Origin: Prochloraceae cyanobacterium
GTDB lineage: Bacteria > Cyanobacteriota > Cyanobacteriia > Cyanobacteriales > JASJDA01
Reading direction: 5' to 3'
Length of the DNA: 64,000 nt
Assembly (NCBI GenBank): GCA_030065755.1
Contig: JASJDA010000003.1
Location: 5,454-69,453 of the forward strand
Position 1 is the first letter of the stretch. Every line of letters starts with the position of its first letter. A program made the position numbers and the translations under genes. Shown one piece after another: positions 4,245-62,786 of the stretch. The notes beneath the pieces were generated by a model that worked only from the letters and a program-made list of their open reading frames with translations, did no database searches and was not told where the DNA came from.

Positions 4245-4252
4245 AGATATAG

Positions 4253-4433
4253 TTTGACTGCGACGTTGGTGACTGCCAATATAGTTTGTTGATCTATGCT
4301 TGATTTATAAGGGAATCGACTACTTTCGCAGCCGTAGACCGAGCTTAGTACTCGGAAACGATAAGCGAACAGCGTGGGTGCCCACCTGGAGTATCCAGGT
4401 CATAAGCTGAGGTAAAACGGCGCTGCGGTCAAA
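4253..4433 (+). ncRNA. ssrS: 6S RNA
   Basis: About 180 nt with closing stem TTTGACTGCG/TGCGGTCAAA, internal CCTGGA-GTA-TCCAGG hairpin and the GGTAAAACGGC segment. Lies directly downstream of purK, the usual cyanobacterial position. Confidence 0.88.
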
Positions 4434-4471
4434 TTATTAATTTGAGAGAGATTGTTTTTTTAGTTGTCAAT

Positions 4472-5548
4472 CTATTGGGTTAAAAAAGGGCTAACTTTGA
4501 CCAATATTTTTCGGAAATTTCGGTAAGGCACTAAACCTTTATATTGAAGACGACCGATAATTATAGCTGGATGTCTTTTTTGAGTTTGAGCGAAAGAGTT
4601 AATCTTTTGTCCCGAAAACTTAGGTTGGGTTTGAGCAATAAAAGATTCTAGTTCCCTTGAAGGAATTAGCCATTCACAAGCTAGTTTATTAGCTTCTTCT
4701 TCTCGAGCGTTTTGGTCTAGTTTATCGAGATTGTCTAAATACAAATCTTGATGCCCCGCAAATATGTGACCCAGTTCGTGCATTAAAGTAAACCAAAACC
4801 AATCAATGCGATCGTATCTTAATGTAAGAGCAATAACAGGACGATCGTTAAAATAAAACATACCACCGTCAATGTAAGTTTTGTCCAGGTTAGGAACTAT
4901 AATGAAATGAATCCCTAAGCGATGAAGCAAAGAAGGGATTTGAGCAACATCATCTTCCTTTTGAGAATAGGTAAGAATCTCAGGGATAGCTTGTTTCAAT
5001 TTTTCTAGTTGAAAAACTGGTAAGCTTTGTTGTTTAACTAAAAATTCTACTCGTTTGAGCCAAGCAATTTCTGATTTAATTTCTGTTTGTTTTGCTTGAC
5101 TTTGACGATAATTAACGTGAAGTTGTGGTGTTTCTTTTGGAGAACTAATTCCTAAAAAATCACAGACGAGTTTTTCTAATTCCTCAATAGGTGTAGAATC
5201 TGTTGCTGTAATCCAGTTACGCTTCCTTATTTCAGAAATTGGTGCTAATTCATACAAGCGACTGCGACGAGTTATTTCTTCTTCTTTGCTCTTTTTTTTT
5301 GCTAAGTGAAGGCGATAATTGTCTTCTAAGTCAAGCCAAAATTTTTCGGAAATACCTAAAGCTGCTGATAGTTCTCTTGCTGTTTCTGGAGTAATTTTCT
5401 TGTGACCTTGTATTATTTCGCTAATAACTTGGGGCGGACGTTTTATTATTTCTGCTAATTCTTTTTGTGTCAGATCTCGCGCATCCAATTCTCTTTTTAA
5501 TATAGTTCCAGGTTTAATTATTCTCGCAGGTGTTAAATTACTGGTCAT
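4472..5548 (-). CDS. higA: HigA-family antitoxin (XRE HTH) fused to an ImmA/IrrE-type Zn metallopeptidase
   Basis: N-terminal PGxILKRELDARDLTQKELA...FWLDLEDNY HTH; C-terminal FWFTLMHELGH (HExxH) and EEEAN. Confidence 0.88.
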   Translation of the reverse strand: MTSNLTPARIIKPGTILKRELDARDLTQKELAEIIKRPPQVISEIIQGHKKITPETARELSAALGISEKFWLDLEDNYRLHLAKKKSKEEEITRRSRLYELAPISEIRKRNWITATDSTPIEELEKLVCDFLGISSPKETPQLHVNYRQSQAKQTEIKSEIAWLKRVEFLVKQQSLPVFQLEKLKQAIPEILTYSQKEDDVAQIPSLLHRLGIHFIIVPNLDKTYIDGGMFYFNDRPVIALTLRYDRIDWFWFTLMHELGHIFAGHQDLYLDNLDKLDQNAREEEANKLACEWLIPSRELESFIAQTQPKFSGQKINSFAQTQKRHPAIIIGRLQYKGLVPYRNFRKILVKVSPFLTQ

Positions 5549-5560
5549 GTTACCATCCCC

Positions 5561-5863
5561 CTAATGATAATCTTCGATATCTACAATTAGTAAATATTTT
5601 CCTTCTTCATCTATTTCTAAAATAATAATCAAACGATATTGGTCGTTCAAACGTAAAGATCTTTCTCCACGATTACCTCGTTTTCCTGAAAGTTTTTCAA
5701 ATCTTAATCCTTTAAAAGTATACAAATCTTGTTCGCTTTCAATTGATTCAATAATCGCTATGATTTCAAAGAAATTATCTACAACATTTTTTGGATATTT
5801 GTGTGCATCTTTTTCCTCTGTGTACAGCTTCTCTATTTTCTTTTTTTTAAAAGAAAATCTCAC
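5561..5863 (-). CDS. higB: HigB/RelE-family toxin (plasmid-maintenance-killer type)
   Basis: FEKLSG, SLRLNDQYRLI, C-terminal IEDYH; toxin upstream of antitoxin; GTG start with GAGG upstream. Confidence 0.9.
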   Translation of the reverse strand: MRFSFKKKKIEKLYTEEKDAHKYPKNVVDNFFEIIAIIESIESEQDLYTFKGLRFEKLSGKRGNRGERSLRLNDQYRLIIILEIDEEGKYLLIVDIEDYH

Positions 5864-7677: not shown

Positions 7678-8628
7678 ATGAGTCAGATTTCGTCTGCTAA
7701 TCCCAAAAATCCTTTTACTGAACCTATTTCCTGGCTTTATAGCTTTTGGAAGTTTGCTCGTCCCCACACGATCGTCGGTACTAGTCTAAGTGTCATTGCA
7801 TTGTACGCGATCGCTATTGCAACTACTAGTAACAGCATCACTACTGAAAATTTCGTGCAATTTTTAGGGGTTTGGATTGCTTGTTTGTGCGGTAACGTCT
7901 ATATTGTCGGCTTAAACCAGGTTGAAGACGTAGAAATTGACAAGATTAATAAACCTCATTTACCGATCGCTGCTGGGGAGTTTTCTATCCAGACAGGAAG
8001 GTGGATTGTAGCAATTACAGGCATACTAGCCCTAATTTTATCAGGATGGCTGGGAATCTGGTTACTAGCAGTAGTAGGGTTGAGTTTAGCAATTGGAAGT
8101 GCTTATTCTTTTCCACCAATTAGATTGAAAAGATTTCCTTTTTTAGCGGCTTCGTGTATTTTTATAGTGCGAGGCGTAGTGGTTAATCTGGGAATATTTT
8201 TGCACTTCGGACAAAAGTTACAAGGAAGGGAATTTTTACCTCTTGTCGTTTGGGTGCTAACAGCTTTTATCGTAGTTTTTACTGTGGCGATCGCTATCTT
8301 TAAAGACGTACCAGATCTCGAAGGAGATAAAAAATTCAATATCTCTACTTTTAGCATCATTATAGGCAAGCAAGCGGTATTTAATTTGGCTCGCTGGCTA
8401 ATTACTATTTGTTATTTAGGCACAGTTTTAGTTGGTATTTTCGGACTTGATGGGGTTAATTCTTTATTTTTAGTTGTTTCTCATTTAAGTTTATTGGGAT
8501 TGTTTTGGTGGCGATCGTTCAGGGTGAATCTAGAAGAGAAAAAGTCGATCGCTCAATTTTATCAATTTATCTGGAAACTCTTTTTCTTAGAATATTTAAT
8601 GTTTCCTATTGCTTGTTTGTTAGTTTAA
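7678..8628 (+). CDS. hpt: Homogentisate phytyltransferase (UbiA family, tocopherol synthesis)
   Basis: FARPHTIVGT, NQVEDVEIDKINKPHLP, KDVPDLEGD, FYQFIWKLFFLEY. Confidence 0.93.
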   Translation: MSQISSANPKNPFTEPISWLYSFWKFARPHTIVGTSLSVIALYAIAIATTSNSITTENFVQFLGVWIACLCGNVYIVGLNQVEDVEIDKINKPHLPIAAGEFSIQTGRWIVAITGILALILSGWLGIWLLAVVGLSLAIGSAYSFPPIRLKRFPFLAASCIFIVRGVVVNLGIFLHFGQKLQGREFLPLVVWVLTAFIVVFTVAIAIFKDVPDLEGDKKFNISTFSIIIGKQAVFNLARWLITICYLGTVLVGIFGLDGVNSLFLVVSHLSLLGLFWWRSFRVNLEEKKSIAQFYQFIWKLFFLEYLMFPIACLLV

Positions 8629-8762: not shown

Positions 8763-11700
8763 TTAGTAGACTTCTAGCATAGCAATTGTTTCTCGTGCTC
8801 GATCGTGAATTTCTTGTCCCACCTGTTCATTTTGCAACAAACCATTTAATTGCTGTCTTATTTGTATTGTAATCTCGTCTTTGTTATTTTTAGAAACCCA
8901 GCTTCTATCTAATACACATTTAGCAGCCAAGAAAAGACTAGAATAATTATTTTTTTCATTTTTTTCTTCGATCAGATAATCCATGAGTTTAACAAAAAAA
9001 CGTCTGTCGAGCATACTAGCAGTAAAACTAAGTGTTTCGTACCAAGAATCATCGTCCAATCGCTGGCTAAAAAGATTAGTTTTTAGATATTCAAATTCTA
9101 TTTCTCGTTTTTTCTCAAATTTATCAATCCAAGACCAAGCACAGAAAAATTCTAAAAAACTACGATGAACAAAACCATACTTATCATCACCATAAAAACA
9201 AAGTATAAAGCTGCGAGTAGTTAGTCTTTCTCGCAACCTTCTGGCAAGCAATATTGTATTTTCTAAATATAAGTATTTGAGATATTCAATGATAATATTG
9301 TCTAAATGTTGTTGGTTAATATATAAATTTTTCTGGTGATTGTTCGGAATGCTATCGGCTTTATTTTGAATTTCGTACGCTACTTGACGCAATATTTCTT
9401 GTTTATCTTTGTCGTCCAGTTGGTCTATAGTTGAATCTGAACCTCGATAGTCTTGGGGTAAATTTTTGTCATTTTCCCAACGATGTAACAGTACCTTAGA
9501 TGCTTCTTGATAAAATCTTACTTTATCTATAGCAAGTACGTCGGATCGACTTAAAATTGCCATCATTGTTAATAGCAAAGGATTTCCAGCAAGTTCTCTT
9601 AAAGCAGGAGAATTGTCAATATAATTTTGTAGGCGATCGCGTTTTAATTCTGCTTCAGTTTTATCTTCAAAAGAAGAATCATGCCATTTTTCAAGAAACT
9701 CTTCAATTTGTTCTTTGTTTAAATCTTGTAACTTAAAATGGCGAAAATTAGCATTTTGTAATCGCTGTCGCTGTTTTTGATAACCAATTATTCGCGATGT
9801 AATTATACTTCTTGCTTTGGGATATTCAACAGTAAAATTAATAATATCAATAACGACATTTTCTCTTTCTCGCTCGCTCAACACTTCATCTAAACCGTCA
9901 AAAATCACTAAAGACTGGCGATTTTTAAGCCATTGATGTAGTCCTTTTTGATTTAAATTACCCCCAATTACTCCTGTTCCTTTCTCTAAATATTCTAGAA
10001 AATTTTGGGATAATTTTTTTTGTTTATTTTGGATATATTTGCGCAATTGAATTAACAAAGGCAATTCTGATTTTGGCAAAGTACTTAGTGATTGTCGCGC
10101 CCATTCCAAAATTTTATACTGAATCAAAGTAGACTTGCCAGAACCAGTATCCCCTAAAATTACTACATATTTATAATTATTATCTGGATTAAATAAATCC
10201 AAAATTGAACAAATATTATTCGATCGTTGGCTATTTTCCTCACGGACATTTTGAGGAATAAAAATTTTCCATAACTTTAAATTATAGTTGGAGCCATCAG
10301 TAGCCAAACTATCTAGCCGAAGTCTACTATAAGCTTTTTGGATACCTTGCTGATAACGAAGTAGATCGAAATCAGGTGAAATAGGAGTAAGTCGATCGGG
10401 AATTTTGGTAATTGTCTTAAAGAGTTCTCTTAATTCATCAGACTCTTGCAGAATAGGTTTTACTTTTCTAACATAGCGCTTTGCTAACCTTTCCCAGTTA
10501 AAATCAGTTGGTAAAGACTTTAAATTAAGGTCATTCCAAGTTGTTTTTAGTAAGACAGTATCGAGAGGTATAGTTTCATCTGAAGAATTCCCCAGAGCTT
10601 GACTTATAGGTTTACCTAAAGCTTGTAATATTGATTTATCACGTATGAATTTATTTAGTGAATCGCTATAATATTTGACTTCATCATCATTGAGATCTGC
10701 ATCTTCTAATTCTTGCTGCACTAATTCTAAGAAAAGCTTTTGCGCTTGACCAAAAGCCTTTTGCAGAGGTTTTTCTTGAGCTAGAGAACCCAGACCTTCA
10801 ATGCTGTCCTTAAAAAAATCTTTAACAAGATCTTTCAAAGCATCCTTTGTTATTTTGCCAAGAACCTCTTTAAAAGCAAACCCAGCAGGAAATTGAATTC
10901 CCCACGCGACCAACAACCAATTTAAATTAGCTATAGTCTCGTTGCTAGTGTCTTTCAACTTTTCAGCCAACTTAGCGTAATCTCCCCCCAATCCCTCTAA
11001 TACTTCTAGAGATATTCGAGCATAGGCTTGTTGAACTACCTCCTTTTTTCCCTCTTCTTCATCTTCTGATGAGGTTTTTAATAAACAGACGCACTCTTTC
11101 AAAGATTTTCTTAAATGGCTTTCAATATATTTTGATATTGTATTAAAAATAAAGACAGAATCACTCAAAGGAGCATCATTTAATAAAATCCTCCTGATGT
11201 CTTTGTGCATTACATCAAATAGAACTAGATCGGGATTAGTATCTGTACTAATCTCCGTTAATGGTTTCAACAATCCTCCTAAAAATACTTCTGCTACATG
11301 AACTGATTGAGACTGAGGTAACAAAGTTTTTTGAATTAAGCGAACCACAGGTAAAGTTATAACAGGTGCAGCCATTAATAACCCTGCTAATTTCCTTCCT
11401 AAAGGAGAAGATATTCTCCGAAAACGCTCTATTAGTTGTTCTGCGCTTAATTGACTAACTCGATTTTGAGGTAACTGGGATGGTGGAGTAAAATCGGATG
11501 CTGAAGGAAAAACAAAACCAGCCATTATTTTGTCGTGTTTTCCTACTAAGAACTCACTCCAACGACTGGCAAATTCTTGTTCTAAGGTTAAAACAGGAAT
11601 TTTTGACCCTTGTTTTAAGTCAAAATCTTTCCATAGAAGCAGTTCGTGAATATGTAAATTTCGATTGGCAACTCCGCGATCGGCAACTACTGGTATTAAA

Positions 11701-12674
11701 TTAGCTAATTGCACTGCAGCACCTATTCGTAATCCGCTTCTCAACCACACGGTATTGGGTAAGATTTGCACAATAGCAACAGGCTGATGTTTTGTCCAAT
11801 TTGTAAAAGTTGACAGAAGCTTTCCATCAAACCACATTTGAGCCACACAATCACTAACAATTAAAATTAAACGACGACCTGTGAGATCTATTAATTCTTG
11901 AGGATTTTTAAACTGTACTTGTTTGCTAAATTTAGTCCTAATAGTAATTTTTCCCTGATTATTAGTGGTTAATCCCCAAGTGCGAACTTGCCGAAAAATG
12001 CCGTAATGTTCTAAGAGTTCCTTTAATTCATTAATAAGATGTTTCCAAAGCACCATTGATGAATTGTCATCCACTACTAAAGCGAGATCCAACCAGGGTT
12101 CAGTTTCACTTTTGAGAATAGGAATACAGATACTTTCTTCGACCGTGCGTTTTACTGTTTCTACTTCATCAAGGATGGTTTTTCTTCCAGACTCCACTCG
12201 ACGCATCAAAGGACGTAAAGCTTTGACCAATTCTAAGGGGTCTCTCAAGGAAGGGGGATCTGTATATTTTAGGGGTAAAGTTTTTCCATCTGGAGTTGGT
12301 GTTGTATTGGCATAAAGTGGAGTTGAGGGTTCCTTATCTTGAGTTGAGCGTTTGTCTTTATCACCCTCTTTATTAGTACCTGTGGGAGGAGGAATCGTGT
12401 CCGATTTATCTGTGGGAGGAGAAATCGTGTCCGATGTACCTGTGGGAGGAGGAATCGTGTCCGATTCAAAATCTAAATCTAGGTTATCAGATATGGATTT
12501 TCGTTTGTCCCCTTCTTGTAGTTTTAAAGCTAACCAGAGAACATCCGCAATCTCTTTTCCCGTCAAATCAAAATTGACATTTAAACGACAAATTAATTCT
12601 TTTAGTTTCTTATTTGCTAATTTTTCTTGAGCCATTTTTATTGTTTCAGTCGCTCTGATTTTAATGAGGTACAA
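8763..12674 (-). CDS. vWA-like (SAV_2336 N-terminal type) protein fused to a helical domain and a NACHT NTPase; effector of a vWA-MoxR-VMAP system
   Basis: EIADVLWLA, ALRPLMRRV, LALVVDDNSSM, LIVSDCVAQMW, HVAEVFLGGLL; then Walker A GDTGSGKST, Walker B IFDGLDEV, NPLLLTM, FVHRSFLEFFCA. True start may be the ATG at 12635. Confidence 0.85.
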   Translation of the reverse strand: MYLIKIRATETIKMAQEKLANKKLKELICRLNVNFDLTGKEIADVLWLALKLQEGDKRKSISDNLDLDFESDTIPPPTGTSDTISPPTDKSDTIPPPTGTNKEGDKDKRSTQDKEPSTPLYANTTPTPDGKTLPLKYTDPPSLRDPLELVKALRPLMRRVESGRKTILDEVETVKRTVEESICIPILKSETEPWLDLALVVDDNSSMVLWKHLINELKELLEHYGIFRQVRTWGLTTNNQGKITIRTKFSKQVQFKNPQELIDLTGRRLILIVSDCVAQMWFDGKLLSTFTNWTKHQPVAIVQILPNTVWLRSGLRIGAAVQLANLIPVVADRGVANRNLHIHELLLWKDFDLKQGSKIPVLTLEQEFASRWSEFLVGKHDKIMAGFVFPSASDFTPPSQLPQNRVSQLSAEQLIERFRRISSPLGRKLAGLLMAAPVITLPVVRLIQKTLLPQSQSVHVAEVFLGGLLKPLTEISTDTNPDLVLFDVMHKDIRRILLNDAPLSDSVFIFNTISKYIESHLRKSLKECVCLLKTSSEDEEEGKKEVVQQAYARISLEVLEGLGGDYAKLAEKLKDTSNETIANLNWLLVAWGIQFPAGFAFKEVLGKITKDALKDLVKDFFKDSIEGLGSLAQEKPLQKAFGQAQKLFLELVQQELEDADLNDDEVKYYSDSLNKFIRDKSILQALGKPISQALGNSSDETIPLDTVLLKTTWNDLNLKSLPTDFNWERLAKRYVRKVKPILQESDELRELFKTITKIPDRLTPISPDFDLLRYQQGIQKAYSRLRLDSLATDGSNYNLKLWKIFIPQNVREENSQRSNNICSILDLFNPDNNYKYVVILGDTGSGKSTLIQYKILEWARQSLSTLPKSELPLLIQLRKYIQNKQKKLSQNFLEYLEKGTGVIGGNLNQKGLHQWLKNRQSLVIFDGLDEVLSERERENVVIDIINFTVEYPKARSIITSRIIGYQKQRQRLQNANFRHFKLQDLNKEQIEEFLEKWHDSSFEDKTEAELKRDRLQNYIDNSPALRELAGNPLLLTMMAILSRSDVLAIDKVRFYQEASKVLLHRWENDKNLPQDYRGSDSTIDQLDDKDKQEILRQVAYEIQNKADSIPNNHQKNLYINQQHLDNIIIEYLKYLYLENTILLARRLRERLTTRSFILCFYGDDKYGFVHRSFLEFFCAWSWIDKFEKKREIEFEYLKTNLFSQRLDDDSWYETLSFTASMLDRRFFVKLMDYLIEEKNEKNNYSSLFLAAKCVLDRSWVSKNNKDEITIQIRQQLNGLLQNEQVGQEIHDRARETIAMLEVY
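12376..12465. repeat. 3 x 30-bp coding tandem repeat (SDTIPPPTGT-like) in the vWA linker
   Basis: TGTGGGAGGAG(G/A)AATCGTGTCCGAT recurs at 12381, 12411 and 12441. Confidence 0.9.
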
Positions 12675-12919
12675 ATTTCAACTTTTTAAATAACTTCTTG
12701 AATCAACAAAATAATTTTTTTATGTGCTAGATAAATATGACAATTATTATAGAGACCTTTGGGTTTTAACACCTTCACTTCCGTCAGTGCAAACTTTATG
12801 AATTTTAACTTCTGCTCTCGCAGTAAGCTGCTATTTATTTAAATTGCACTTTACTTTTTTAGTGCTGTACCCCTTACGGTCAAACAATAAAACTAGAAAA
12901 TTAAATGCATAACAGCGTA

Positions 12920-14122
12920 TTACCAATCACTTTCAGTAAGTGGTTTCATTAACAAATCTCGAAGTCTATCTTTTTGGTCTCGATCTTGAGGACTATTTTC
13001 ATGGGTAATTATATAAATCGCATTTAATAGTTGATCCGTTGCTTTATCCATTGTCTCTCCTTGCTCCGGAACAAAGTGCTCAATTAATTGATTGATTTCG
13101 TCAGTTTTTTCGTTAAATAAATCTTCTGTAAAATGAGCTTTGACAATATTTTCTAGTTCCGGAACTGTAGGATCTGGCATTTTCACTCGTAAACATCGCC
13201 TTTTAAAGGCTTTTGGAAAATCTCTCTCTCCATTACTGGTCATAACAATAATAGGAAAAGCATAACATTTTACTCGTCCTCCTTTAATCGTGACATCAAT
13301 ATCTTCATCGCTCGTTTGCACTGTAAATAAATTATCTTTTTGTTTATTTTTAGATCGTCTAACTAATTCAGCAATTTCAAATTGTCCTTCTTCAAATAAA
13401 TTTAATAAATCGTTGGGTAAATTAATATCGCTTTTATCAATTTCGTCAATTAAGAGTACCCTAGGTAAAAAAGACGGTAAAAATGCTGTTCCTAATGCTC
13501 CTAATTTAATATATTGTCCAATGGGTTGTTCTTCACTATGAGAACCATCAGGATTAGGAGAATTATTAGGAATATGATTATTATTAGCATCTTGGAGTCG
13601 AGCTATTGCATCATAGCGATATAATCCTTCTTGTAAAGTAGAACGAGCAGTAATTGACCAAGACAATACTGAACCTAAATTTAATTCATAAGCGATCGCA
13701 TAAGCTAAAGATGTTTTTCCAGAACCAGGTCTTCCTGTTACCAATAAAGGTCTTCTCAAATAAATAGCTGCATTAACAGCATCTCTAACTTCGGTTGCAT
13801 CCTTAGAATCAGAAAGTCTAAAATTTTTACCTTTTTTTATCTCTCTTTCTTTCTTATTTGCTCTTTCAATTAATTGCTCGAAGCGGTTTCTGTCTATATC
13901 TTCAGGAGTTTGTTTTTTTTCTTTTTCCTTGTCTGTCTCAGACTCACTAATAACAAAATCTTCTGTTTTTCCAAACTGTCTCCAGGGCGGAGATTCTATC
14001 TTTTTAATATTGTCTCGTAGTTTGTGAATGTCCTCTTCAGTTAATTCTTTTTCTCTTCCTTTTCCTTGGAATAGATACCATTCAGCCATAATGAAATCTC
14101 CTTGTCTGTATTTATCTATCAA
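12920..14122 (-). CDS. MoxR-family AAA+ ATPase (VMAP-system type)
   Basis: PPWRQF, VNAAIYLRRPLLVTGRPGSGKTS, GLYRYDAIARL, LLIDEIDKSDINLPNDLL, TSNGERDFPKAFKRRC. Confidence 0.92.
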   Translation of the reverse strand: MIDKYRQGDFIMAEWYLFQGKGREKELTEEDIHKLRDNIKKIESPPWRQFGKTEDFVISESETDKEKEKKQTPEDIDRNRFEQLIERANKKEREIKKGKNFRLSDSKDATEVRDAVNAAIYLRRPLLVTGRPGSGKTSLAYAIAYELNLGSVLSWSITARSTLQEGLYRYDAIARLQDANNNHIPNNSPNPDGSHSEEQPIGQYIKLGALGTAFLPSFLPRVLLIDEIDKSDINLPNDLLNLFEEGQFEIAELVRRSKNKQKDNLFTVQTSDEDIDVTIKGGRVKCYAFPIIVMTSNGERDFPKAFKRRCLRVKMPDPTVPELENIVKAHFTEDLFNEKTDEINQLIEHFVPEQGETMDKATDQLLNAIYIITHENSPQDRDQKDRLRDLLMKPLTESDW

Positions 14123-16299
14123 AATCCAGTAAATATATCATCTCCTGGATTAGTAAATTTATCATCTCCTAAATTTTTATCAAATTTAGAATGTAATCGA
14201 TGAGGATCGTCAAATAAAAAACCAAGATGATATCCTAAATATTCATTTTGTTTTTCTTCTGGTTCTACATAAGCATTTTCCCTAATAATCCTAATTGATT
14301 CAAATAGGTTTTCAGGCTTTTTAATATTATCAACGGTTAAAACATCTTCAAATTCATAATTGTCTATCTTTTCTTCCTCTCTAAGCTTTAAATTTTCCAA
14401 GAAATTTCCTCTTAGCCAAAATGCAAAAGGAATACCATGACGAAAAATACTAGTTAAAAATTCTTCAATATGACAAGTATAACTTTCTTCTAGTAAAGGA
14501 CAATTAATATTAATGTTAATGAATTTAGTTAGTTGTTTTCCTAATTTTTTCCAGTTGTAGTTTTTTTCTAGTTTCTTCAGACAGATTACTCTCTTTTTAA
14601 TAGTTTCTGGGGTCAATGAGTCTTGTAAATCACTCAATTTCTTCCATTTACTTAATAAACTATGATGATAACTATAACTACCACTATAGCGATCGTAAGA
14701 ACGGAGAACGAATTTGTATCTAGAACCAAACCACTCAGGATCGGATTCATTAATAGGAATTTTTTGAATTTCAGGGGCAAAAACAACCAAATATTTTTTA
14801 GGCAAAAATAATTCTATTGTCAATTCATTTACATTTTCATAAAAAACTAACTTTTTATTACTTTCTTCAATAAATTGATAAACCTTTGAGCAAATATATT
14901 CAATATCTTCTGAGTTTACATCAATAGATTTATCTTCTATTAAAGTAACTGTTTTTCTTTTGACTTCTTGGGAGTCAGACATTTCTTCAAAAATCAATTC
15001 GGCTTTAAATTCCAATTTAGACTGGTGATGAATATTTGGCTCAACTAAAATAAGTAAGTAAGGTAACCCAATCTTACAAATAGTTTCTTCTTGCCTGTCA
15101 TGTTTAACCTTTGATAACTGATTTAAAGTATTGCTATCTATTCCCAGTTCTTGACTTGTTTGATTAATCCATTGATTTAGCTCATTTTTAATGGCTAATA
15201 GATCGGATTGCTGAGATTCAAAAAGAAATTGAGCAAATTCTACGACTAACGGTAGATTAGATTCATGATTCCGATCTAGTTTAATTTCTAATAAAATCTC
15301 TTTGAGATAATCGAAATTGTTTTCTTCGGATAAATGAAGATAGTTTCCTTCAGGATCCTTACTATATCTATATAAAAATTGATAACAATAACGAGATATA
15401 TTGTGCCATTTAAGAACATTTATGATTTTAACAAATTCTTGCCATTGCGAATCTAAAATATCAAATTGTTTTGCAGATTTAGTCAAAGCAATTCTTGACG
15501 GTCTATTACCATATTGATCTTCGTAAGATAAATAAATAGGACCTGGATCATTTTCATGATCTGTTTTAAAAATATCTTGTACATTTTCTATGATTTTATT
15601 TATAGATTCAGTAGATAATAAGTTATCTTGTTTATTTAGCTCTTTTAGTAATATTTTTGAAAATAATCCTGTTTTTTCCTTATCAAGATTTATACTCGGA
15701 TATCCTTTTTCGGTTGCTAGTAAAACAACTTGTTTACGTTTTTTATCTTGTTCTCCGGAAGGAAAATCATAATTTGGTAATGATACCAATTCCTCAGAAG
15801 AATAATTAGCATAAGAATAATATTTAGCACAAGCATCAAAGATCAATATTTGCTGATATAAAATACCAAATAACTCTGAGTTTAAATATTCTAATAAAGA
15901 GTTTAAATTGAGATTTTCATTTCCATCATCATAGTAAAATCTACGGTCATTACGGCCAATCATAACACCGTGTCCACCCCAAAATATATATAGTAAATCT
16001 CCTTTATCTTTATTCTTTGGAATAACTTTAGTAATTGCTGTGCGAATATTGTCAAAGGTAGCTTTTTGTTTTTTATCCCATAGTGATTGTAAAGATTTTT
16101 TATCCTTTACTATGTCTGGTTTAGATAATTCAGAAATATACAGTTCAATATTGTTAATAGGAACTTTTCTTGTCAACAGCCAATCTGCAAATTTCAAGGC
16201 ATCTGATGCGGGTCCATCTAAGTCCCAGTCCTGACCCCGATCGTATTTTTCTATACCAACAATCAGTGCGTAAGTTTTTTGAGGCTCGGGTACATTCAT
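14119..16299 (-). CDS. Caspase-like (C14) peptidase fused to VMAP middle/C-terminal domains
   Basis: YALIVGIEKY, LDGPASDA, catalytic His (WGGHG) and Cys (FDAC); C-terminus IELFLP, FVLRSYDR, GIPFAFWLR, LFDDPHR matches the VMAP-C pattern. Overlaps both neighbours by 4 bp. Confidence 0.82.
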   Translation of the reverse strand: MNVPEPQKTYALIVGIEKYDRGQDWDLDGPASDALKFADWLLTRKVPINNIELYISELSKPDIVKDKKSLQSLWDKKQKATFDNIRTAITKVIPKNKDKGDLLYIFWGGHGVMIGRNDRRFYYDDGNENLNLNSLLEYLNSELFGILYQQILIFDACAKYYSYANYSSEELVSLPNYDFPSGEQDKKRKQVVLLATEKGYPSINLDKEKTGLFSKILLKELNKQDNLLSTESINKIIENVQDIFKTDHENDPGPIYLSYEDQYGNRPSRIALTKSAKQFDILDSQWQEFVKIINVLKWHNISRYCYQFLYRYSKDPEGNYLHLSEENNFDYLKEILLEIKLDRNHESNLPLVVEFAQFLFESQQSDLLAIKNELNQWINQTSQELGIDSNTLNQLSKVKHDRQEETICKIGLPYLLILVEPNIHHQSKLEFKAELIFEEMSDSQEVKRKTVTLIEDKSIDVNSEDIEYICSKVYQFIEESNKKLVFYENVNELTIELFLPKKYLVVFAPEIQKIPINESDPEWFGSRYKFVLRSYDRYSGSYSYHHSLLSKWKKLSDLQDSLTPETIKKRVICLKKLEKNYNWKKLGKQLTKFINININCPLLEESYTCHIEEFLTSIFRHGIPFAFWLRGNFLENLKLREEEKIDNYEFEDVLTVDNIKKPENLFESIRIIRENAYVEPEEKQNEYLGYHLGFLFDDPHRLHSKFDKNLGDDKFTNPGDDIFTGF

Positions 16300-17507
16300 A
16301 ATTTTCTAATCCTATTTGCAATTGCTTCCCATGTAGCATCATTTTCCCAATAACCACCATGAGAGTGGGGAAAAGGAAGCTTATTATCAACAGGAATATC
16401 TTGCACTCTGTTCGGAAAAACATTTCCGCCAATAAAACTAAGAAAGTCATAGCGATCGTAGATATTTAACCATTCAGGAAAAGCATTAGAATCAGGTAAT
16501 GGGGTACCAAATTTTAAACTTTGCAGTGCATTAATTTCATAAAAATAAGGAACTTGAGAGCCAACTGTTACTAAGAGCTTAACTTTAGGAATTTTATTTT
16601 TAATTAATAAATCAACACTAGCAATTCCTCCTAAACTATGCGCAAGTAAAACTACCGGAGGTTGAGCATCTTTAATATAGTTCTCAAGCAAATCCCTAAT
16701 TGTTTGACCATGCCCTTGATAGAGTAAAATATCTCCAATCATTGGGGTCGTAATATCTGAAATTAGCCCTCTTTTTCCTGCTAATCCATAGGTGGGTAAT
16801 TTTAAGATTTGTTTTATAAACCAATTTCCAGGACCACGTTCTGAAGGCATAATTTCACTACTAATACTTTTAATAATTTTCTCTCTCTCAGTTGGGTTTT
16901 CCTCAATACTAGGGGGAGATTTTTTTTGTATTTTGTAAATAGAAATTGACTCAGCAATAATAGCTCTCGATATTATATCTCGATATTCAATTAAAGTATC
17001 ATCTGAAACTTGTTTGAGTGCTTCTCTATAAGAATTAGAGCTAACAACATTTTGATGAGCTTGACCAAAGACATCTGCAATTTCACTTTCTTTTAATTGA
17101 TTTTCAAATGATGTATTATTTGAAGGATTTAATTGTCTTACCTTCTCATCTATTATGTCACTGGGTTCTTTCTCACCTGGCCTAGATCTCTGTTGCTTCT
17201 TTGCTATTATCGAGAATAAACGTAATTCATAAAAAGAATCTAGAGATAGCTCCATCCAACGAACAGTATCTTCATTTACTGTAAAATCATTTCTAGTTGA
17301 ATCATAGAAAGGGATAGAAGCCCCATTAGCATTCAATTTAGCCCCTAGATAATTTCCCCACGAACAAGGAACCACTTCAATCTCTGGTAGTCTTTTTTGA
17401 AGTTCTAACTTAACTTTTGGAAATATTGTTTTTGATAATGATGTTTTTGTTTTTGATAATGATGTTTCTCTTACCGATATTCCATGTACAAATATTACTG
17501 TTGCCAT
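16296..17507 (-). CDS. Alpha/beta hydrolase (lipase/esterase-like)
   Basis: VIFVHGI oxyanion region, GDILLY, nucleophile AHSLGG, WLNIYDRYD, HGGYW (Ser-Asp-His triad). Confidence 0.85.
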   Translation of the reverse strand: MATVIFVHGISVRETSLSKTKTSLSKTIFPKVKLELQKRLPEIEVVPCSWGNYLGAKLNANGASIPFYDSTRNDFTVNEDTVRWMELSLDSFYELRLFSIIAKKQQRSRPGEKEPSDIIDEKVRQLNPSNNTSFENQLKESEIADVFGQAHQNVVSSNSYREALKQVSDDTLIEYRDIISRAIIAESISIYKIQKKSPPSIEENPTEREKIIKSISSEIMPSERGPGNWFIKQILKLPTYGLAGKRGLISDITTPMIGDILLYQGHGQTIRDLLENYIKDAQPPVVLLAHSLGGIASVDLLIKNKIPKVKLLVTVGSQVPYFYEINALQSLKFGTPLPDSNAFPEWLNIYDRYDFLSFIGGNVFPNRVQDIPVDNKLPFPHSHGGYWENDATWEAIANRIRKL

Positions 17508-17850: not shown

Positions 17851-17870
17851 AGCACCAAGATCTTGGTGCT
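17851..17870. promoter_or_regulatory. Perfect 20-bp palindrome upstream of the hisD paralogue
   Basis: AGCACCAAGATCTTGGTGCT, about 16 nt before the GGAGG RBS. Function unknown. Confidence 0.4.
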
Positions 17871-17896: not shown

Positions 17897-19216
17897 ATGA
17901 CAAGAATTCTGCGACTGGCAGAAATGACACCAGAAGACCTGGCTTCGTTAAAAAGACGAGCAGAATTGGACATCGAAAATGCTCTTTCAATTGCTAAAGA
18001 GGCGATCGATAAAATTAAACTACAGGGCGACTCAGCAGTTATAGAATATGTCAGGAAATTTGACTATCCTGGGGCAGAAGTAGGTAACATCAAAGTTACA
18101 GAAGAAGAATTCGATCGCGCGCAACAAGAGATCGAACCAGAAATAAGAGAAGCGATCGCCCATGCTTACTCTAATATTAAGGAAGTTCACCAACGCCAAA
18201 TGCCTGAAGAAATGAGCATGGCGGAAATAGACAAGGGTGTCTTTGCAGGAGAAAAAGTAACTCCAGTCCCCAACGCAGGGTTATACGTCCCCAGAGGTAA
18301 AGGCGCTTTTCCTTCAGTAATGCTAATGCTTAGCGTCCCTGCTGTGGTTGCTGGGGTTCCTAGAGTCATGGTATGTACTCCCCCCGATAAAAATGGGAAT
18401 GTGGAACCAGCATCTTTAGTTGCAGCAGCGATGGCTGGTGTCAAAGAAGTATATAAACTGGGAGGAATTCAGGCGATCGCTGCAATGGCTTTGGGAACCC
18501 AAACTATTCCTAAAGTTGATAAAATTACTGGACCTTGCAATGTTTACGGTTCTGCCGCCAAACGCTTACTATACGGTACAGTAGACGTAGGATTACCTGC
18601 AGGACCTAGCGAATCTATTATACTCACCGACGAGACTACTGACCCCCAATTAGCCGCTCTAGATCTATTAATTGAAGCAGAACACGGACCGGACTCAGCA
18701 GCACTTTTAGTGACTCACAGCGAATCTTTGGCTACAAAAGCGATCGAATACCTCTCCGAGTATCTCAAACGACTTCCAGAATGGCGCAGGAAATTTTGCG
18801 AGAAAGGACTCTCCTCCTACGGTGGTATCTTGCTAACTTCCAGTTTGGAAGAGTCGATCGCTTTTCTCAACGACTACGCACCCGAACACTTAGAAGTTTT
18901 GGTTAAAGATCCTTTTAGCATTTTAGGAGAAATCAAAAACGCAGGAGAAATCTTACTAGGAAATTACACTCCTATTCCTACTGCTAATTACTGTTTGGGG
19001 GTAAATGCTATTCTTCCCACAGGAAGTTTTGCTCGTTCCTATTCTGCTGTGTCGGTCTTTGATTTTCTCAAGCGATCGGGTATTGGCTATCTAACCCAAG
19101 AAGGATTTGAGAAATTGAAAAAAACAGCCTCTACTTTAGCAGAGTACGAAGGTTTTCCCGCTCACGCAATGGCAATTCGGGAACGAGATGTTTTGTTAAA
19201 ACCCGATCGTTCCTGA
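17897..19216 (+). CDS. hisD: Histidinol dehydrogenase-family protein (divergent paralogue)
   Basis: GLYVPRGKG, LGGIQAIAA, PAGPSE, DLLIEAEHG, APEHL, LPTG. Confidence 0.9.
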   Translation: MTRILRLAEMTPEDLASLKRRAELDIENALSIAKEAIDKIKLQGDSAVIEYVRKFDYPGAEVGNIKVTEEEFDRAQQEIEPEIREAIAHAYSNIKEVHQRQMPEEMSMAEIDKGVFAGEKVTPVPNAGLYVPRGKGAFPSVMLMLSVPAVVAGVPRVMVCTPPDKNGNVEPASLVAAAMAGVKEVYKLGGIQAIAAMALGTQTIPKVDKITGPCNVYGSAAKRLLYGTVDVGLPAGPSESIILTDETTDPQLAALDLLIEAEHGPDSAALLVTHSESLATKAIEYLSEYLKRLPEWRRKFCEKGLSSYGGILLTSSLEESIAFLNDYAPEHLEVLVKDPFSILGEIKNAGEILLGNYTPIPTANYCLGVNAILPTGSFARSYSAVSVFDFLKRSGIGYLTQEGFEKLKKTASTLAEYEGFPAHAMAIRERDVLLKPDRS

Positions 19217-20619: not shown

Positions 20620-21180
20620 ATGACTAATGGTTTCGCTCCATCTGTAACACTAGAAGAGTTTTTGAGACTACTAGAAACTAAACCTGCATCTGAATTTGTT
20701 CGCGGAGAAATTATTAAAAAACCAATGCCTCAAGGGGAACATAGTAGATTACAATCTAAATTGTGTGCTGCTATTAACGAAGTTGCTGAATCGCAGAAAA
20801 TAGCTTATGCTTTCCCAGAGTTACGCTGTAGTTTTGGCGGATATTCGATCGTTCCCGATATTTCTGTGTTTCTTTGGGAGAGGATTCCTTTGAGTTTTTT
20901 GGGTAGAATTGCTAATCGTTTTGAGATTCATCCAGATTGGGTAATTGAAATTCTTTCTCCCGATCGAAAACAGACAAAAGTGTTAGAAAATTTGCTTCAT
21001 TGTTCTCAGCATGGGACAAAATTAGGTTGGTTAATTGACCTAGAAGAAGAAAGCATTCTAGTTGTGTTTCCCGAACAAAGGGTAAAATTATTTAGAAAAA
21101 AAACTCGATTACCAATTCTCCGACCGATCGAATTGGTGTTGACAGTAGAAAATGTTTTTAATTGGTTGAAAATGAAATAA
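20620..21180 (+). CDS. Uma2/DUF820 family endonuclease-fold protein
   Basis: ETKPASEF, KPMPQGEHSRLQ, FPELRC, VPDI, PDWVIEILSP, LGWLID. Confidence 0.92.
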   Translation: MTNGFAPSVTLEEFLRLLETKPASEFVRGEIIKKPMPQGEHSRLQSKLCAAINEVAESQKIAYAFPELRCSFGGYSIVPDISVFLWERIPLSFLGRIANRFEIHPDWVIEILSPDRKQTKVLENLLHCSQHGTKLGWLIDLEEESILVVFPEQRVKLFRKKTRLPILRPIELVLTVENVFNWLKMK

Positions 21181-55462: not shown

Positions 55463-56943
55463 TTGACTGCTCCCCTGCTTAAAAGAGAGGGGATTCTAAT
55501 AAGGAGGTTTGAGAACGGGTTAAAACCGCATTCTCAAACGCTGTTTTCTTATTAGCTGACCAAAGTTTAATTCTCTGGGGACGAGTCAAAGCGCCCCTAG
55601 ACACTCGCTCAAGGCTTACATTGCTAAGAATGCTTGAGGTTGTGCTTACTTGTGTTAGTTTGCAAATGATATTTGCTGCTCCATTACAGTCAGCATTGAT
55701 ATACCAGTTGTTAGCGGTTCGATACAAACCGCGCTTAGTTCTTGTACCTGATGGTTTCCAATCTTTGGGTTTTTCACCTATGGTTGGCAGATAGTCACCA
55801 TCTAAAAAACTAGCAATACTTGTATAAGATTCTTCAGTTTCAACGAACTGAATTCCGTATTGAGAACATAGTTGTTCAATTCTTTCTTTGAGTCTGGCTG
55901 TAGGAATAGGGACAAACTCAGAGTTATTCTTTTTGCCGATATTGATACTGTCTTTGTTTCGTTTGTTCCAACCAAAAATAACAGTACCTATATTGTTTTT
56001 TAGGCAATGATTAATTACTATTCTTGCTGCTTTATTGATTCCATCTTTGACTTGTCTATTGCGTTTTTCGGTTATGGCAGCTAACTTATTATTCCAAAAA
56101 TCTTGAGACTTATTCTCTTTAATAGTTGAGACTTTCTTGTTATACCAGCGATTCATTGATTTCAGATGCTTACCATCAACAATAAAGCTGGTGTCAACGT
56201 TAGACACACAGGTTAACCAGTTATCAACTCCTGGGTCTATTCCTAGTACATTATCTGGGTTAACCTGAAATGTTTCTATTTGTTTTTCATAGACAAACTC
56301 AAAGTAGAAACATTTATTTCTAGGAAGTATTCTCAACTCTTTAATGTCAGCAAAGTTAAGGTTAGCAGGTATTGAAATCAAAAAACTATCTATTGCAAAC
56401 CATCTTTTACAGGTCGTGCCTAGTGGTACTCTAATCTGACCCTCTTTTAGCTTTAATGCCTGCTTGGGGTAACTTACTGTGGCTAATCCACCTTTTTTTC
56501 TATAATTAGGGATTTGTGGTCTTTCAGTTATTTTGCCCTTTTTATATGCCTTGATTAGTCCATAATAAGACTTGAAAGATTCCGCGACAGTTCTCAATAT
56601 TTGTTGTGCCGCTTGAGAGTATAAAACCTTGTAGTGGTTGTTGCTTTTGTAGACTTTCTCTAAGTCATATTTACCTATACCTTTTTGAGCTTTAAAGTAT
56701 AGTTGTCTGGCATAATAAATCCCCATGTTAGTGAGTTTATGAGACTCTTCACATAAGAATGTTAGTATGTTGAGTAGGTCTGGGTTTTGACTTACTAAAA
56801 CTTGCTGACAACCGTACATATTTTGGGATTTACACTAATAAAATTGTACCATGTTTCGAGACACTTAAAAGTGTCTGACCTAAACGGTTCGCTCGTTTTC
56901 ATCCCCTACTTGAAAGACAGGGGCTTTCAACATCGCTATTCCG
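55463..56943 (-). mobile_element. IS200/IS605-family element carrying only tnpB (no tnpA)
   Basis: Left end on minus strand TTAC|CGGAATAGCGATGTTG-AAAG-CCCCTGTCTTTCAAGTAGGGG; right end GAAT-CCCCTCTCTTTTAAGCAGGGG-AGCAG-TCAA|. Same guide/cleavage tetramers as IS608. Confidence 0.85.
55479..56819 (-). CDS. tnpB: RNA-guided endonuclease TnpB
   Basis: RuvC-I LGIDPG, EESYTS, RuvC-III INADCNGAANI; N-terminal MYGCQQVL, SQAAQQ. Confidence 0.92.
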   Translation of the reverse strand: MYGCQQVLVSQNPDLLNILTFLCEESHKLTNMGIYYARQLYFKAQKGIGKYDLEKVYKSNNHYKVLYSQAAQQILRTVAESFKSYYGLIKAYKKGKITERPQIPNYRKKGGLATVSYPKQALKLKEGQIRVPLGTTCKRWFAIDSFLISIPANLNFADIKELRILPRNKCFYFEFVYEKQIETFQVNPDNVLGIDPGVDNWLTCVSNVDTSFIVDGKHLKSMNRWYNKKVSTIKENKSQDFWNNKLAAITEKRNRQVKDGINKAARIVINHCLKNNIGTVIFGWNKRNKDSINIGKKNNSEFVPIPTARLKERIEQLCSQYGIQFVETEESYTSIASFLDGDYLPTIGEKPKDWKPSGTRTKRGLYRTANNWYINADCNGAANIICKLTQVSTTSSILSNVSLERVSRGALTRPQRIKLWSANKKTAFENAVLTRSQTSLLESPLF

Positions 56944-56956
56944 GTAAAAACACTCC

Positions 56957-60628: not shown

Positions 60629-60712
60629 TTGCTATTTGCTGTTAGCTGTTGGTTGTTTGTATATAATTTTCTCCCCCATCTCCCCCTCTCCCCCTCTCCC
60701 CCTCTCCCTCTC
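60626..60712 (-). repeat. Compound STRR tract (reverse-complement arrangement of the 19221 and 46451 tracts)
   Basis: TTTGCTATTTGCTGTTAGCTGTTGG then CTCCCCC runs. Confidence 0.75.
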
Positions 60713-60719
60713 TTTTTCT

Positions 60720-62081: not shown

Positions 62082-62298
62082 TCATTTATAGTTGCCACTA
62101 GATAATAGATAATCCTACCAATACATAGATTATCTAGATTTGTCAGCTATTTTGCATCTGACAGGTCCCTCGATGCTGCAAATTTTTTTTATGACTATTG
62201 TCTTGCAAAAGGAATGTATCCTACTAAAATAGAAAGCTCTGTGTCTCCTCCCCCTTGTCACTGGGAACAAAAATGATTATAATTATAGGTAGACACAT

Positions 62299-62684
62299 GG
62301 GGCCGCAACGGTTTCGACAGGTTGGCGAAAACTATCCCGTGATGCAGGTCGAGAGTGAGTCTCCTCTCGTAAATCAAAGACTCAAACAATCTGTAAATGC
62401 GAACAACATTGTAAGATTCGAGCGTAAGGCAGTAGCTATTGCCTAGGTCATAACTCTTAAGACTTGCTCACTTTTAGCTTGACTCCGTTAAGGGCTAAAA
62501 GTTAACCCCCAACGGATGCTCTAGTTAGGTTCCTCTGGTGAGCTAACTAGTTAAGAATTTACCAGAGCATCCCACCGTCAGGGATAATCGACGGTTCCCG
62601 CCTGAGGATTAGAAAGGCTAAGCCTGTGAAAGATCGGAAAGTCAATACCCAATTTGGACAGCAGTTCGACTCTGCTCGGCTCCA
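62299..62684 (+). ncRNA. ssrA: tmRNA; tag peptide ANNIVRFERKAVAIA
   Basis: 5' GGGGCCGCAACGGTTTCGACAGG; 3' T-arm GCAGTTCGACTCTGC and CGGCTCCA acceptor; resume codon GCG at 62399, stop at 62444-62446. Confidence 0.97.
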
Positions 62685-62786
62685 TTTTTCACTTCTTCCA
62701 ACTGCCTAAACCTCTAGGGATATTTTGACTTGGGGAATTCCTCCTTCTTCACAGGTTTCCCCAATTTGTTTAAAATTCCAAAGCAA

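Follow-up and report, generated by a model that had tools for sequence, protein, structure and literature searches.

Which partner senses and which one acts in a compact gene cluster that joins two predicted NTPases to a caspase and a second hydrolase, and does such a cluster belong to a known class of conflict system? These questions are raised by a locus in a 64,000-nt stretch of contig JASJDA010000003.1 from a Prochloraceae cyanobacterium (hereafter the window). ORF calling identified four long open reading frames (ORFs) on the minus strand, spanning positions 8763-17507 (~8.7 kb), which we refer to as A (alpha/beta-hydrolase), B (caspase-VMAP), C (MoxR) and D (vWA-NACHT):

16296-17507, minus strand: A, predicted alpha/beta-hydrolase, ORF of 403 aa
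14119-16299, minus strand: B, predicted caspase-VMAP subunit, ORF of 726 aa
12920-14122 as ORF, 12920-14089 from its ATG, minus strand: C, predicted MoxR ATPase, 389 aa from the ATG
8763-12674 as ORF, 8763-12635 from its ATG, minus strand: D, predicted vWA-NACHT protein, 1290 aa from the ATG

VMAP-type MoxR-vWA ternary conflict systems were defined computationally (eLife 2020, PMC7159879), where they are described as enriched in multicellular bacteria and predicted to be devices of immunity or cell death that are widespread in these organisms. A previous sequence-only reading of this DNA had assigned the locus to that family, and our analysis supports the assignment as far as its defining features can be tested on sequence: the third subunit carries a VMAP-C domain scoring above its cut-off and a caspase at its N-terminus with a hydrolase beside it, a MoxR-clade gene and a subunit with vWA topology and a variable C-terminus are present, the gene order is shared by 8 of the 37 related loci, and the motifs are intact. 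From the systems set out in the available parts of PMC7159879 the locus does not differ in kind, sharing their subunits, N-terminal peptidase, hydrolase beside the caspase, gene order, and cyanobacterial and actinobacterial spread; its whole NNH2-NACHT effector is rare among them.

Components of the ternary system and their linkage

Gene B encodes the VMAP subunit, which divides into three parts:

15565-16275, minus strand: caspase (C14) domain of B, aa 9-245 (Peptidase_C14, E 3e-12)
14839-15537, minus strand: variable middle region of B, aa ~255-487
14203-14838, minus strand: VMAP-C domain of B, aa 488-699 (PF20028, E 3.8e-16)

The C-terminus, on whose match to VMAP-C the earlier assignment hinged, reaches 60.1 bits in Pfam, above the curated PF20028 cut-off of 27, and contains a C-terminal LGYHLGFLxDxPxRL motif conserved in 18/18 sequences of alignment A1. 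Within the caspase domain, His110 and Cys157 are invariant (18/18, alignment A1), and the profile of this alignment matches the Trypanosoma brucei metacaspase MCA2 (3.6e-4). The middle region of ~230 aa matched no Pfam family; an ESM Atlas comparison with VMAP-M0-bearing actinobacterial VMAPs (template modelling (TM) score about 0.5) is a lead only. This region is also the most divergent part of the protein, with 53, 33 and 25% identity to its counterparts in the related loci L001, L003 and L034, respectively. A metagenome protein, P0001, is 89% identical to B. At the 3' end of the gene, a 24-bp tandem duplication (two copies, 14128-14175) doubles a GDDxFT peptide that is present as a single copy in P0001.

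By its sequence, C is a MoxR-clade AAA+ ATPase. It matches Pfam AAA_5 above the cut-off (E 4.7e-8) and contains a Walker A motif (GRPGSGKT) and a Walker B motif (LLIDEID), with residues G130, P132, G133, G135, K136, D226 and E227 (ORF numbering) invariant among the 19 sequences of alignment A4. Searched against PDB sequences as a profile, C found Midasin as its best match (1.7e-5); a PDB search with C as a single sequence gave none.

Gene A falls below the curated cut-off of Abhydrolase_6 in Pfam (E 4e-4, 21.5 bits against 26.3), and its assignment therein draws on alignment and structure prediction. Residues A3, H8, G9, H290, S291, L292, G293, G294, D351 and D354 are invariant among 23 sequences (alignment A3) and H383 is conserved in at least 90% of them, which fits a triad of Ser291 (within AHSLGG), Asp351 or Asp354, and His383, with an oxyanion motif HG at aa 8-9. 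An AlphaFold2 (AF2) model with a predicted local distance difference test (pLDDT) score of 79 shows a minimal alpha/beta-hydrolase core into which ~200 aa of helical sequence (~aa 79-280) are inserted; the models of A and D were built on shallow alignments of 23 and 18 rows, respectively. Bacillus LipA has a nucleophile elbow of a similar A-x-S-x-G type. The best PDB match of the A model in Foldseek was B. subtilis lipase A (1i6w, E 4.8e-4, probability 1.00), followed by acyl-protein thioesterase 2, esterases and DPP-IV peptidases. Hence, of the name lipase given to A by the sequence-only reading, the alpha/beta-hydrolase fold and the Ser-Asp-His triad are borne out at the level of alignment, model and Foldseek match, but lipid specificity is not, since the matches include a thioesterase and peptidases. 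The same reading had all catalytic motifs intact, and the alignments agree: the His-Cys pair of B, the triad of A and the Walker motifs of C and D all match positions that are invariant or, for His383 of A, nearly so.

An alignment of B with 17 homologues led to 37 related loci in species-representative genomes; the source genome is not represented among these 37. The nearest relatives are filamentous cyanobacteria, e.g. Floridaenema evergladense (L001) of the order Aerosakkonematales. When parts of the window were compared to these loci by tblastn, the order hydrolase, caspase protein, MoxR, vWA was recovered in 8/37, including five cyanobacterial loci with a VMAP-C match (L001, L003, L005, L023, L034) and three actinobacterial ones (L017, L018, L029). 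Identity to the window in L001, L003 and L034 is 76, 78 and 75% for MoxR, 74, 67 and 66% for the vWA subunit, and 58, 54 and 56% for the hydrolase; the L001 caspase protein is 58% identical.

According to PMC7159879, a caspase on a VMAP is always accompanied by a neighbouring alpha/beta-hydrolase, and our collection allows this linkage to be quantified. The hydrolase lies directly upstream of the caspase in 23 of 25 caspase-bearing loci (exceptions L007 and L035) and is found in none of the 12 loci lacking a caspase match. The VMAPs of these 12 loci all carry VMAP-C, with an N-terminal EAD1 (8/12) or CHAT (2/12) domain, so that the hydrolase tracks the caspase and not the ternary core. Hydrolase and caspase also occur as a pair without VMAP-C, MoxR or vWA genes in 13/37 loci, with the hydrolase (35-47% identical) directly upstream of a homologous caspase:

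Loci with the pair only: L004, L006, L008, L010, L012, L013, L014, L015, L016, L019, L022, L024, L036

Some of the caspase homologues (P0020-P0026) carry NB-ARC, NACHT or TPR modules at their C-termini. The pair thus looks like a portable two-enzyme module, and two-gene modules of a hydrolase and a caspase-STAND protein share a homologous pair with our locus while differing in the absence of VMAP-C, MoxR and vWA genes.

Three of the genes had also been described as coupled by 4-bp overlaps, of which one is firm: A ends and B begins within a common ATGA. At the B/C junction, a 4-bp overlap would require a TTG start for C (14122). A conserved M-x-E-W-Y-L-F forms the start of the C homologues, a stop codon interrupts the extension upstream of it in L001, and the ATG at 14089 is preceded at a distance of 8 nt by an AAGGAGA, which makes a 29-nt spacer with a ribosome-binding site the likely arrangement. 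For D, the ATG at 12635 is the most likely start, in line with its relatives (MAQEKL...), which would place C and D 284 nt apart; the gap in relatives ranges from 40 to about 235 nt.

12636-12919, minus strand: AT-rich C-D spacer, 284 nt

The vWA subunit and its NACHT module

Gene D encodes the vWA subunit, with a front part shared with its relatives and a C-terminal part that is not:

12483-12611, minus strand: N-terminal helical hairpin of D, aa 9-51 (A30, D31 and W34 invariant in alignment A2)
12240-12482, minus strand: disordered Pro-rich linker of D, aa 52-132 (pLDDT 25-35)
11508-12188, minus strand: predicted vWA-like Rossmannoid domain of D, aa ~150-376 (model topology and two Asp)
10950-11468, minus strand: helical linker domain vWA-L of D, aa ~390-562 (helices in model)
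10299-10922, minus strand: NNH2, the NACHT N-terminal helical domain 2, of D, aa 572-779 (Pfam, E 4.6e-51)
9678-10169, minus strand: NACHT NTPase domain of D, aa 823-986 (Pfam, E 4.4e-14)
8766-9677, minus strand: helical/winged-helix and C-terminal region of D, aa 987-1290 (stand-alone relatives cover 93-100%)

The front of D is covered by a match to NCBIfam SAV_2336_NTERM (E 3e-121, ORF aa 39-522). In the model the hairpin consists of helices 9-22 and 26-51 (pLDDT about 70). The counterparts of the disordered linker in relatives are unrelated low-complexity sequences of variable length that cannot be aligned; in D this linker contains a 30-bp tandem repeat in three copies (12377-12466, Tandem Repeats Finder score 159, 90% matches) encoding SDTIPPPTGT-type decapeptides.

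In PMC7159879 the vWA domain is characterized as a six-stranded Rossmannoid fold with a conserved Asp closing each of core strands 1 and 4. The model of D places strands at 183-189, 217-224, 230-234 and 255-261 (pLDDT about 80), with Asp189 at the end of core strand 1 and Asp262 just after core strand 4, and both residues are invariant (18/18, alignment A2). Because topology and Asp pair fit this definition, we accept aa ~150-376 as a predicted vWA domain at the level of topology and motif. The motif resembling a metal-ion-dependent adhesion site (MIDAS) reads DDNSS in D, L002, L003 and L034, DENSS in L001 and, in several relatives, DESKS, which is the classical MIDAS sequence. Foldseek with the D model returned chain G of the NorQD complex, presumably NorD, at ranks 7 and 18 (E 2.8e-3, probability 0.97-0.99), which is marginal, and a cluster in the ESM Atlas with VWA_CoxE in 11% of its members (score 0.83) is a lead only. 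The earlier description of D as a vWA-NACHT protein therefore holds through profile matches for its NNH2 and NACHT domains and through topology and the Asp pair for its vWA domain, but not through a Pfam VWA match.

The vWA domain is followed by the linker domain vWA-L (PMC8195603), which closes with a conserved segment, ISLEVLEGLGGDYAKLAEKLKD, at the end of the constant part of D. A motif of the form [FY]A.I.L.VL.-.LGG.YA.FAE was found here in 10 of the 12 sequences inspected, with divergence beyond it, and this end helix is conserved across relatives irrespective of the effector that follows. In D, what follows is NNH2, which opens with the hydrophobic segment NWLLVAWGIQFPAGFAF and aligns with residues 2-20 of stand-alone NNH2-NACHT relatives (n=17), whose hydrophobic N-terminus has the form M-x-D-W-L-V-L-W-G-V...G-F-x-F-K. 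The joint can thus be mapped exactly: aa 572 of D corresponds to residue 2-3 of the stand-alone proteins and lies 9 residues past the end of vWA-L (~aa 562). This co-linearity right behind the vWA-L helix indicates that a whole NACHT gene was captured in frame.

The NACHT domain retains a Walker A motif (GDTGSGKS, Lys834) and a Walker B motif (FDGLDE; Asp913, Asp916 and Glu917), all invariant in 18/18 sequences of alignment A5. Inactive decoy domains are described among many of the effectors in PMC7159879; the conservation of both Walker motifs argues that the module of D is not one of them. With these motifs, a helical/winged-helix region downstream, and co-linearity with proteins of ~720 aa, the C-terminal part of D has the features of a bacterial NACHT protein. 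It is not a free-standing tripartite one: the module sits behind 571 aa of N-terminal helices, vWA and vWA-L, and lacks a repeat-type sensor, with no HEAT, WD40, TPR or LRR repeats detected in D by Pfam. A PDB search with aa 591-1290 as a single sequence gave no match. Stand-alone NACHT antiphage proteins, which are related to NLRs (10.1101/2022.07.19.500537), are among the closest known systems. Along their whole length, aa 572-1290 of D are 50-53% identical to cyanobacterial NNH2-NACHT proteins of ~720 aa; these are free, while the module of D is fused to vWA-L and encoded in an operon-like cluster with MoxR, caspase and hydrolase. In the available text of that study NNH domains are mentioned in figure legends only, and neither MoxR nor vWA comes up in the available text of a preprint from 2026 on STANDs in defence (10.64898/2026.01.04.697583).

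How common is a NACHT module in this position? Across the 37 related loci, tblastn detected no NNH2 or NACHT behind the vWA region, the single NACHT match being located directly behind the caspase of L014. Among 16 related vWA subunits annotated with Pfam, 11 carry an FGE-sulfatase domain, including all the closest relatives, and none a NACHT; the remaining C-termini comprise CHAT, lectin + AAA_35, nSTAND5 + cold-shock domain, SecA-PP + thioredoxin, and one case with no domain. The C-terminal module of the vWA subunit is therefore replaced cassette-like between relatives, and the placement of the joint in D shows that whole genes are picked up as cassettes behind the conserved linker helix.

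Larger searches gave the same picture. A word-indexed search with aa 1-560 yielded 601 proteins at E <= 1e-3, and among the best 120 of these at least 78 list FGE-sulfatase, with NNH2 and NACHT found in the window's own protein only (1/120). Conversely, aa 590-1290 retrieved 1620 proteins at E <= 1e-3, the best matches being stand-alone NNH2-NACHT proteins of 714-760 aa (50-53% identity), to which longer ones add HEAT repeats. Finally, an exhaustive search of 1.84 billion representatives with aa 130-1290 produced 17,852 matches at E <= 1e-3; in the best 150 of these, both halves were matched by the window's own cluster only (2599 bits), the next scores, 738 and 626 bits, belonging to matches with NACHT only and with vWA only, respectively. 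Nine of these 150 proteins have room for a fusion and were domain-scanned, and the other 141 were judged by match coordinates. None of the nine combines SAV_2336_NTERM with NACHT or NNH2: five are vWA subunits (four with other STAND-type or AAA NTPase modules, one with WD40 + GUN4), three are NACHT proteins from the clade of D's module with an N-terminal caspase or CHAT domain (P0317, P0301 and P0390), and one is an NNH2-NACHT-HEAT protein. Among P0317, P0301 and P0390, two caspases are assigned by NCBIfam to the "EACC1-associated type", and all three proteins have weak partial matches to the NCBIfam model "antiphage EruA"; our literature searches found no paper on EruA with NACHT and nothing relevant on NNH2.

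The combination had been presented as one with no known experimental study, and here the claim of novelty holds in part: full-text literature searches returned no experimental paper on VMAP systems, but the pairing of caspase and hydrolase and sporadic NACHT fusions are already in PMC7159879. Every component class of the locus was likewise known from that work, in which NACHT is listed among the sporadic STAND modules fused to vWA subunits, and a vWA target with an additional NACHT domain is described for Thiohalocapsa in PMC10907252. New are the vWA-NNH2-NACHT architecture, a singleton among the best-ranked matches listed, the exact mapping of the cassette joint, and the quantified linkage of hydrolase and caspase. 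The nearest systems by sequence are the cyanobacterial VMAP systems with an FGE-sulfatase (FGS/CLec) module, often targets of diversity-generating retroelements (DGRs), as described in PMC7159879 and PMC10907252. They share the same vWA-L end motif and differ in carrying FGE-sulfatase where our locus has NNH2-NACHT. We also considered a DGR-linked system and rejected it: no reverse transcriptase was found among the window ORFs of >=90 aa, nor any FGE-sulfatase domain among the window ORFs.

Proposed order of events and competing explanations

In the model put forward in PMC7159879, MoxR ATP hydrolysis and peptide binding by the vWA domain reorganize the complex, the middle region of the VMAP senses the invader, and the peptidase then frees the vWA subunit's fused effectors. 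Transferred to this locus, the model suggests a system that triggers abortive infection or programmed cell death upon sensing an invader, with the caspase releasing the effector, a scheme we put forward tentatively and regard as quite possible. At rest, D would be inactive, its NNH2-NACHT module tethered through vWA-L to the vWA domain, whose MIDAS-type site (Asp189, Asp262) would bind a peptide segment and whose partner ATPase would be a hexamer of the MoxR protein C. B would dock by its VMAP-C domain and detect the invader through its fast-evolving middle region. ATP hydrolysis by MoxR would then remodel the complex and the caspase of B would be activated, along with its obligate partner, hydrolase A. 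The activated caspase might cut D between the end of vWA-L (~aa 562) and aa 572, freeing a protein co-linear with stand-alone NACHT proteins and exposing its hydrophobic N-terminus; with the joint at residue 2-3 of these proteins, a cut there would recreate a native-like NACHT protein. The freed module could bind NTP and oligomerize, with NNH2 performing the toxic step, and hydrolase A may be a second effector, acting on lipids or proteins.

Several observations weigh against this scheme. The position behind vWA-L is usually occupied by a ligand-binding domain of the FGE-sulfatase type, which would suggest a sensor and not a released toxin, and members of the same NACHT clade elsewhere lie downstream of a caspase or CHAT domain, as might be expected if NACHT controls the caspase. 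No site of cleavage in D is predictable for the caspase. D may have its own promoter in the 12636-12919 spacer, apart from the other three genes. The vWA domain itself departs from the canonical form in that the first Ser of the MIDAS motif is Asn in D, and similarity searches do not recover it directly: Pfam VWA models matched none of D and its 17 relatives (0/18), even at E up to 10; the A2 profile gave four chance-level matches among PDB sequences (E 2.1-4, FAM155A, through the low-complexity linker), none of them a vWA protein; and Foldseek with the whole 560-aa model of D ranked phosphoribosyltransferases first (E about 1e-3), with low TM scores. Finally, full-text literature searches found no experimental study of any VMAP system, and no PADLOC-DB 2.0 model recognized the system as a whole. 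A comparison to this database, from which the earlier note had expected a test, gave a generic caspase model (2.5e-16), weak AAA matches (mad8, IetA, PtuA) and nothing for the hydrolase.

The first two of these points would fit a reversed, inflammasome-like order, in which the NLR-like NNH2-NACHT module serves as sensor and oligomerization switch, MoxR-vWA relays or licenses the signal, and caspase and hydrolase kill. A corresponding division of labour is proposed for DGR-linked systems in PMC10907252, with the variable domain fused to vWA sensing and the N-terminal peptidase of the VMAP executing, a proposal that its authors say "remains to be experimentally tested". The slot of the NACHT module is filled by an FGE-sulfatase-type binding domain in 11/16 subunits and in at least 78 of the best 120 matches, three of the nine scanned proteins place a caspase or CHAT in the N-terminal effector position of a NACHT-clade protein, and the hydrolase-caspase pair stands alone in 13/37 loci, with caspases bearing NB-ARC, NACHT or TPR C-termini, so that it resembles a portable effector module under STAND control. 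However, a repeat-type sensor domain is missing from the NACHT module of D, the middle region of the VMAP diverges fast and is itself sensor-like, and no result of this analysis links NACHT activity to the caspase. Moreover, the fusion buries an N-terminus that is free in 17/17 aligned stand-alone relatives, and an N-terminal effector domain would thereby be blocked unless released. We consider the reversed order somewhat unlikely. A fuller variant strikes us as unlikely: a counterpart of the inflammasome built with other connectors, where NACHT would sense and oligomerize, MoxR-vWA would license, the caspase would be activated by proximity together with the hydrolase, and a reciprocal cut at the vWA-L/NNH2 joint would free the NACHT N-terminus and make the decision irreversible. 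Such a circuit, a checkpoint of two NTPases and two hydrolases, is not known to have been described mechanistically in any organism. The animal inflammasome and apoptosome, cited here as an analogy only, likewise unite a STAND/NACHT NTPase and a caspase-fold protease in one circuit; they differ in that the locus has no CARD or Pyrin adaptors and would couple its parts through MoxR, vWA and VMAP, and we do not claim homology of the circuits.

Outside immunity, the locus might serve regulated self-proteolysis, for example a death programme linked to stress or development, with MoxR-vWA acting as a maturation chaperone and NACHT as a nucleotide or metabolite switch. MoxR-vWA pairs are mainly known as maturation chaperones in the account of PMC7159879 (RavA-ViaA, CoxD-CoxE, midasin), which also has the family enriched in multicellular bacteria; the nearest relatives here are filamentous cyanobacteria, and no known defence gene lies directly beside the locus. 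The NorQ-NorD, RavA-ViaA and CoxD-CoxE systems likewise place a MoxR-clade AAA+ protein beside a MIDAS-type vWA protein, but they mature metalloenzymes and have no VMAP, caspase or NACHT partner. The swapping of vWA modules, patchy distribution, low GC and plasmid carriage are marks of conflict systems, and the locus is flanked at a distance of ~3 kb by a HigB-type toxin pair on one side and a Uma2 endonuclease-like gene on the other, all of which makes a non-immune role improbable in our view. It is also conceivable, though we judge it highly improbable, that a chance NACHT-vWA fusion disabled an acquired cassette and left a silent or decaying remnant. Such decay would be compatible with a fusion that is a singleton among the best matches listed, with the Ser-to-Asn change in the MIDAS motif, with the 284-nt C-D gap, and with small duplications specific to this lineage (three copies of 30 bp in D, two of 24 bp at the 3' end of B). 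Yet none of the four reading frames is interrupted along the 8.7 kb of AT-rich DNA, no catalytic or NTP-binding residue that is invariant among relatives has been lost, and P0001, 89% identical to B, implies that the lineage persists; the DDNSS sequence is shared with L002, L003 and L034, which have the ordinary architecture, and L001 (DENSS) shows the same Ser-to-Asn change. We leave a small remainder of probability to mechanisms other than these four.

Compact (8.7 kb, four genes), with its active sites intact and with a complete NACHT protein, of a kind that also exists free-standing, as its variable module, the locus is a good first test case for VMAP systems, on which the two orders make distinct predictions: release by the caspase predicts a Cys157-dependent fragment of ~83 kDa, and the reversed order predicts NACHT-dependent activation of the caspase. 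Should the signal indeed run from NACHT to caspase, the locus would offer a prokaryotic example for the origin of NLR-caspase logic.

Accessory status and genomic surroundings

The four genes lie between two genes of the opposite strand:

7678-8628, plus strand: homogentisate phytyltransferase gene, hpt (NCBIfam PRK12887, E 5.8e-146)
17897-19216, plus strand: hisD (Pfam, E 3.4e-147)

ORFs, flank profiles and composition agree with the earlier description of four co-oriented, AT-rich genes between hpt and hisD. GC content is 0.327 in the locus and 0.389 in the remaining window, GC at third codon positions (GC3) is 0.18-0.25 in the locus genes compared to 0.27-0.47 in mutS2, purK, hisD, relA/spoT, recF and leuB, and only 2 of the window's 38 HIP1 octamers fall inside the locus, against 5.2 expected at the window average. 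The AT-richness noted in that description is thereby confirmed. The HIP1 octamers and the nearest relatives both indicate a cyanobacterial source.

The hisD and hpt flanks are common to none of the 37 related loci; a tblastn search of these loci with hisD, hpt, the M16 gene and the APH-like gene gave a single match, the M16 gene in L015. Homologues of the MoxR gene C are present on 89 plasmid records, and plasmid homologues 41-54% identical to C bear the annotation "MoxR family ATPase". On the conjugative plasmid pn3 of Nostoc sp. UHCC 0926 (L038, 174954-187931), a related ternary-type system is carried by a mobile replicon, with genes encoding a TPR protein, a CHAT protein, a hypothetical protein, a MoxR family ATPase and a SAV_2336 N-terminal domain-related protein (1162 aa). 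Being AT-rich, without shared hisD/hpt flanks and with a plasmid-borne relative, the locus is unlike conserved core genome, a finding that would have spoken against the sequence-only reading, and it looks like an accessory module that was probably acquired horizontally. A repeat search revealed no direct repeats bracketing the locus as a mark of integration. Prophage or transposon cargo was considered as well and rejected, as no integrase or transposase adjoins the locus and the nearest TnpB gene is 38 kb away.

Rfam had no match inside the locus. In a promoter and terminator scan, promoter-like sites were about as frequent as in shuffled sequence, and no terminator within the locus was informative. 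In the 389-bp divergent region between A and hisD, positions 17851-17870 form a perfect palindrome with an 8-bp stem, AGCACCAAGATCTTGGTGCT, with T-runs on both strands, a possible bidirectional terminator or operator.

A Pfam and ORF scan of the window showed no gene known as a defence gene directly beside the locus. Further away, the window contains the following features:

4252-4435, plus strand: 6S RNA gene (Rfam, 85 bits)
4472-5548, minus strand: HTH_3 + Peptidase_M78 (IrrE-like) gene
5561-5863, minus strand: HigB-like RelE-family toxin gene (Pfam, 1.4e-9)
20620-21180, plus strand: Uma2-family putative restriction-endonuclease-like gene (Pfam, 1.2e-30)
55479-56819: TnpB/IS605 OrfB-like gene
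56957-60628: gene for a 1223-aa protein with AAA_35 and 12 WD40 repeats
60720-62081: gene for a 453-aa AAA_35 protein
62299-62687: tmRNA gene (Rfam, 137 bits)

The HigB-type pair (4472-5863, minus strand, toxin gene first) is AT-rich (GC 0.28-0.35) and directly adjoins the 6S RNA gene; it looks like a small toxin-antitoxin islet. The Uma2-family gene, 3 kb from the locus, sits between the APH-like kinase-fold gene and HAD/aminotransferase genes. At the far end of the window, the 55479-62687 stretch, which is closed by the tmRNA gene, looks like a second conflict-type island; tmRNA genes are a classic integration hotspot. AAA_35, present in both large proteins of this stretch, is also the vWA-fused module in L028.

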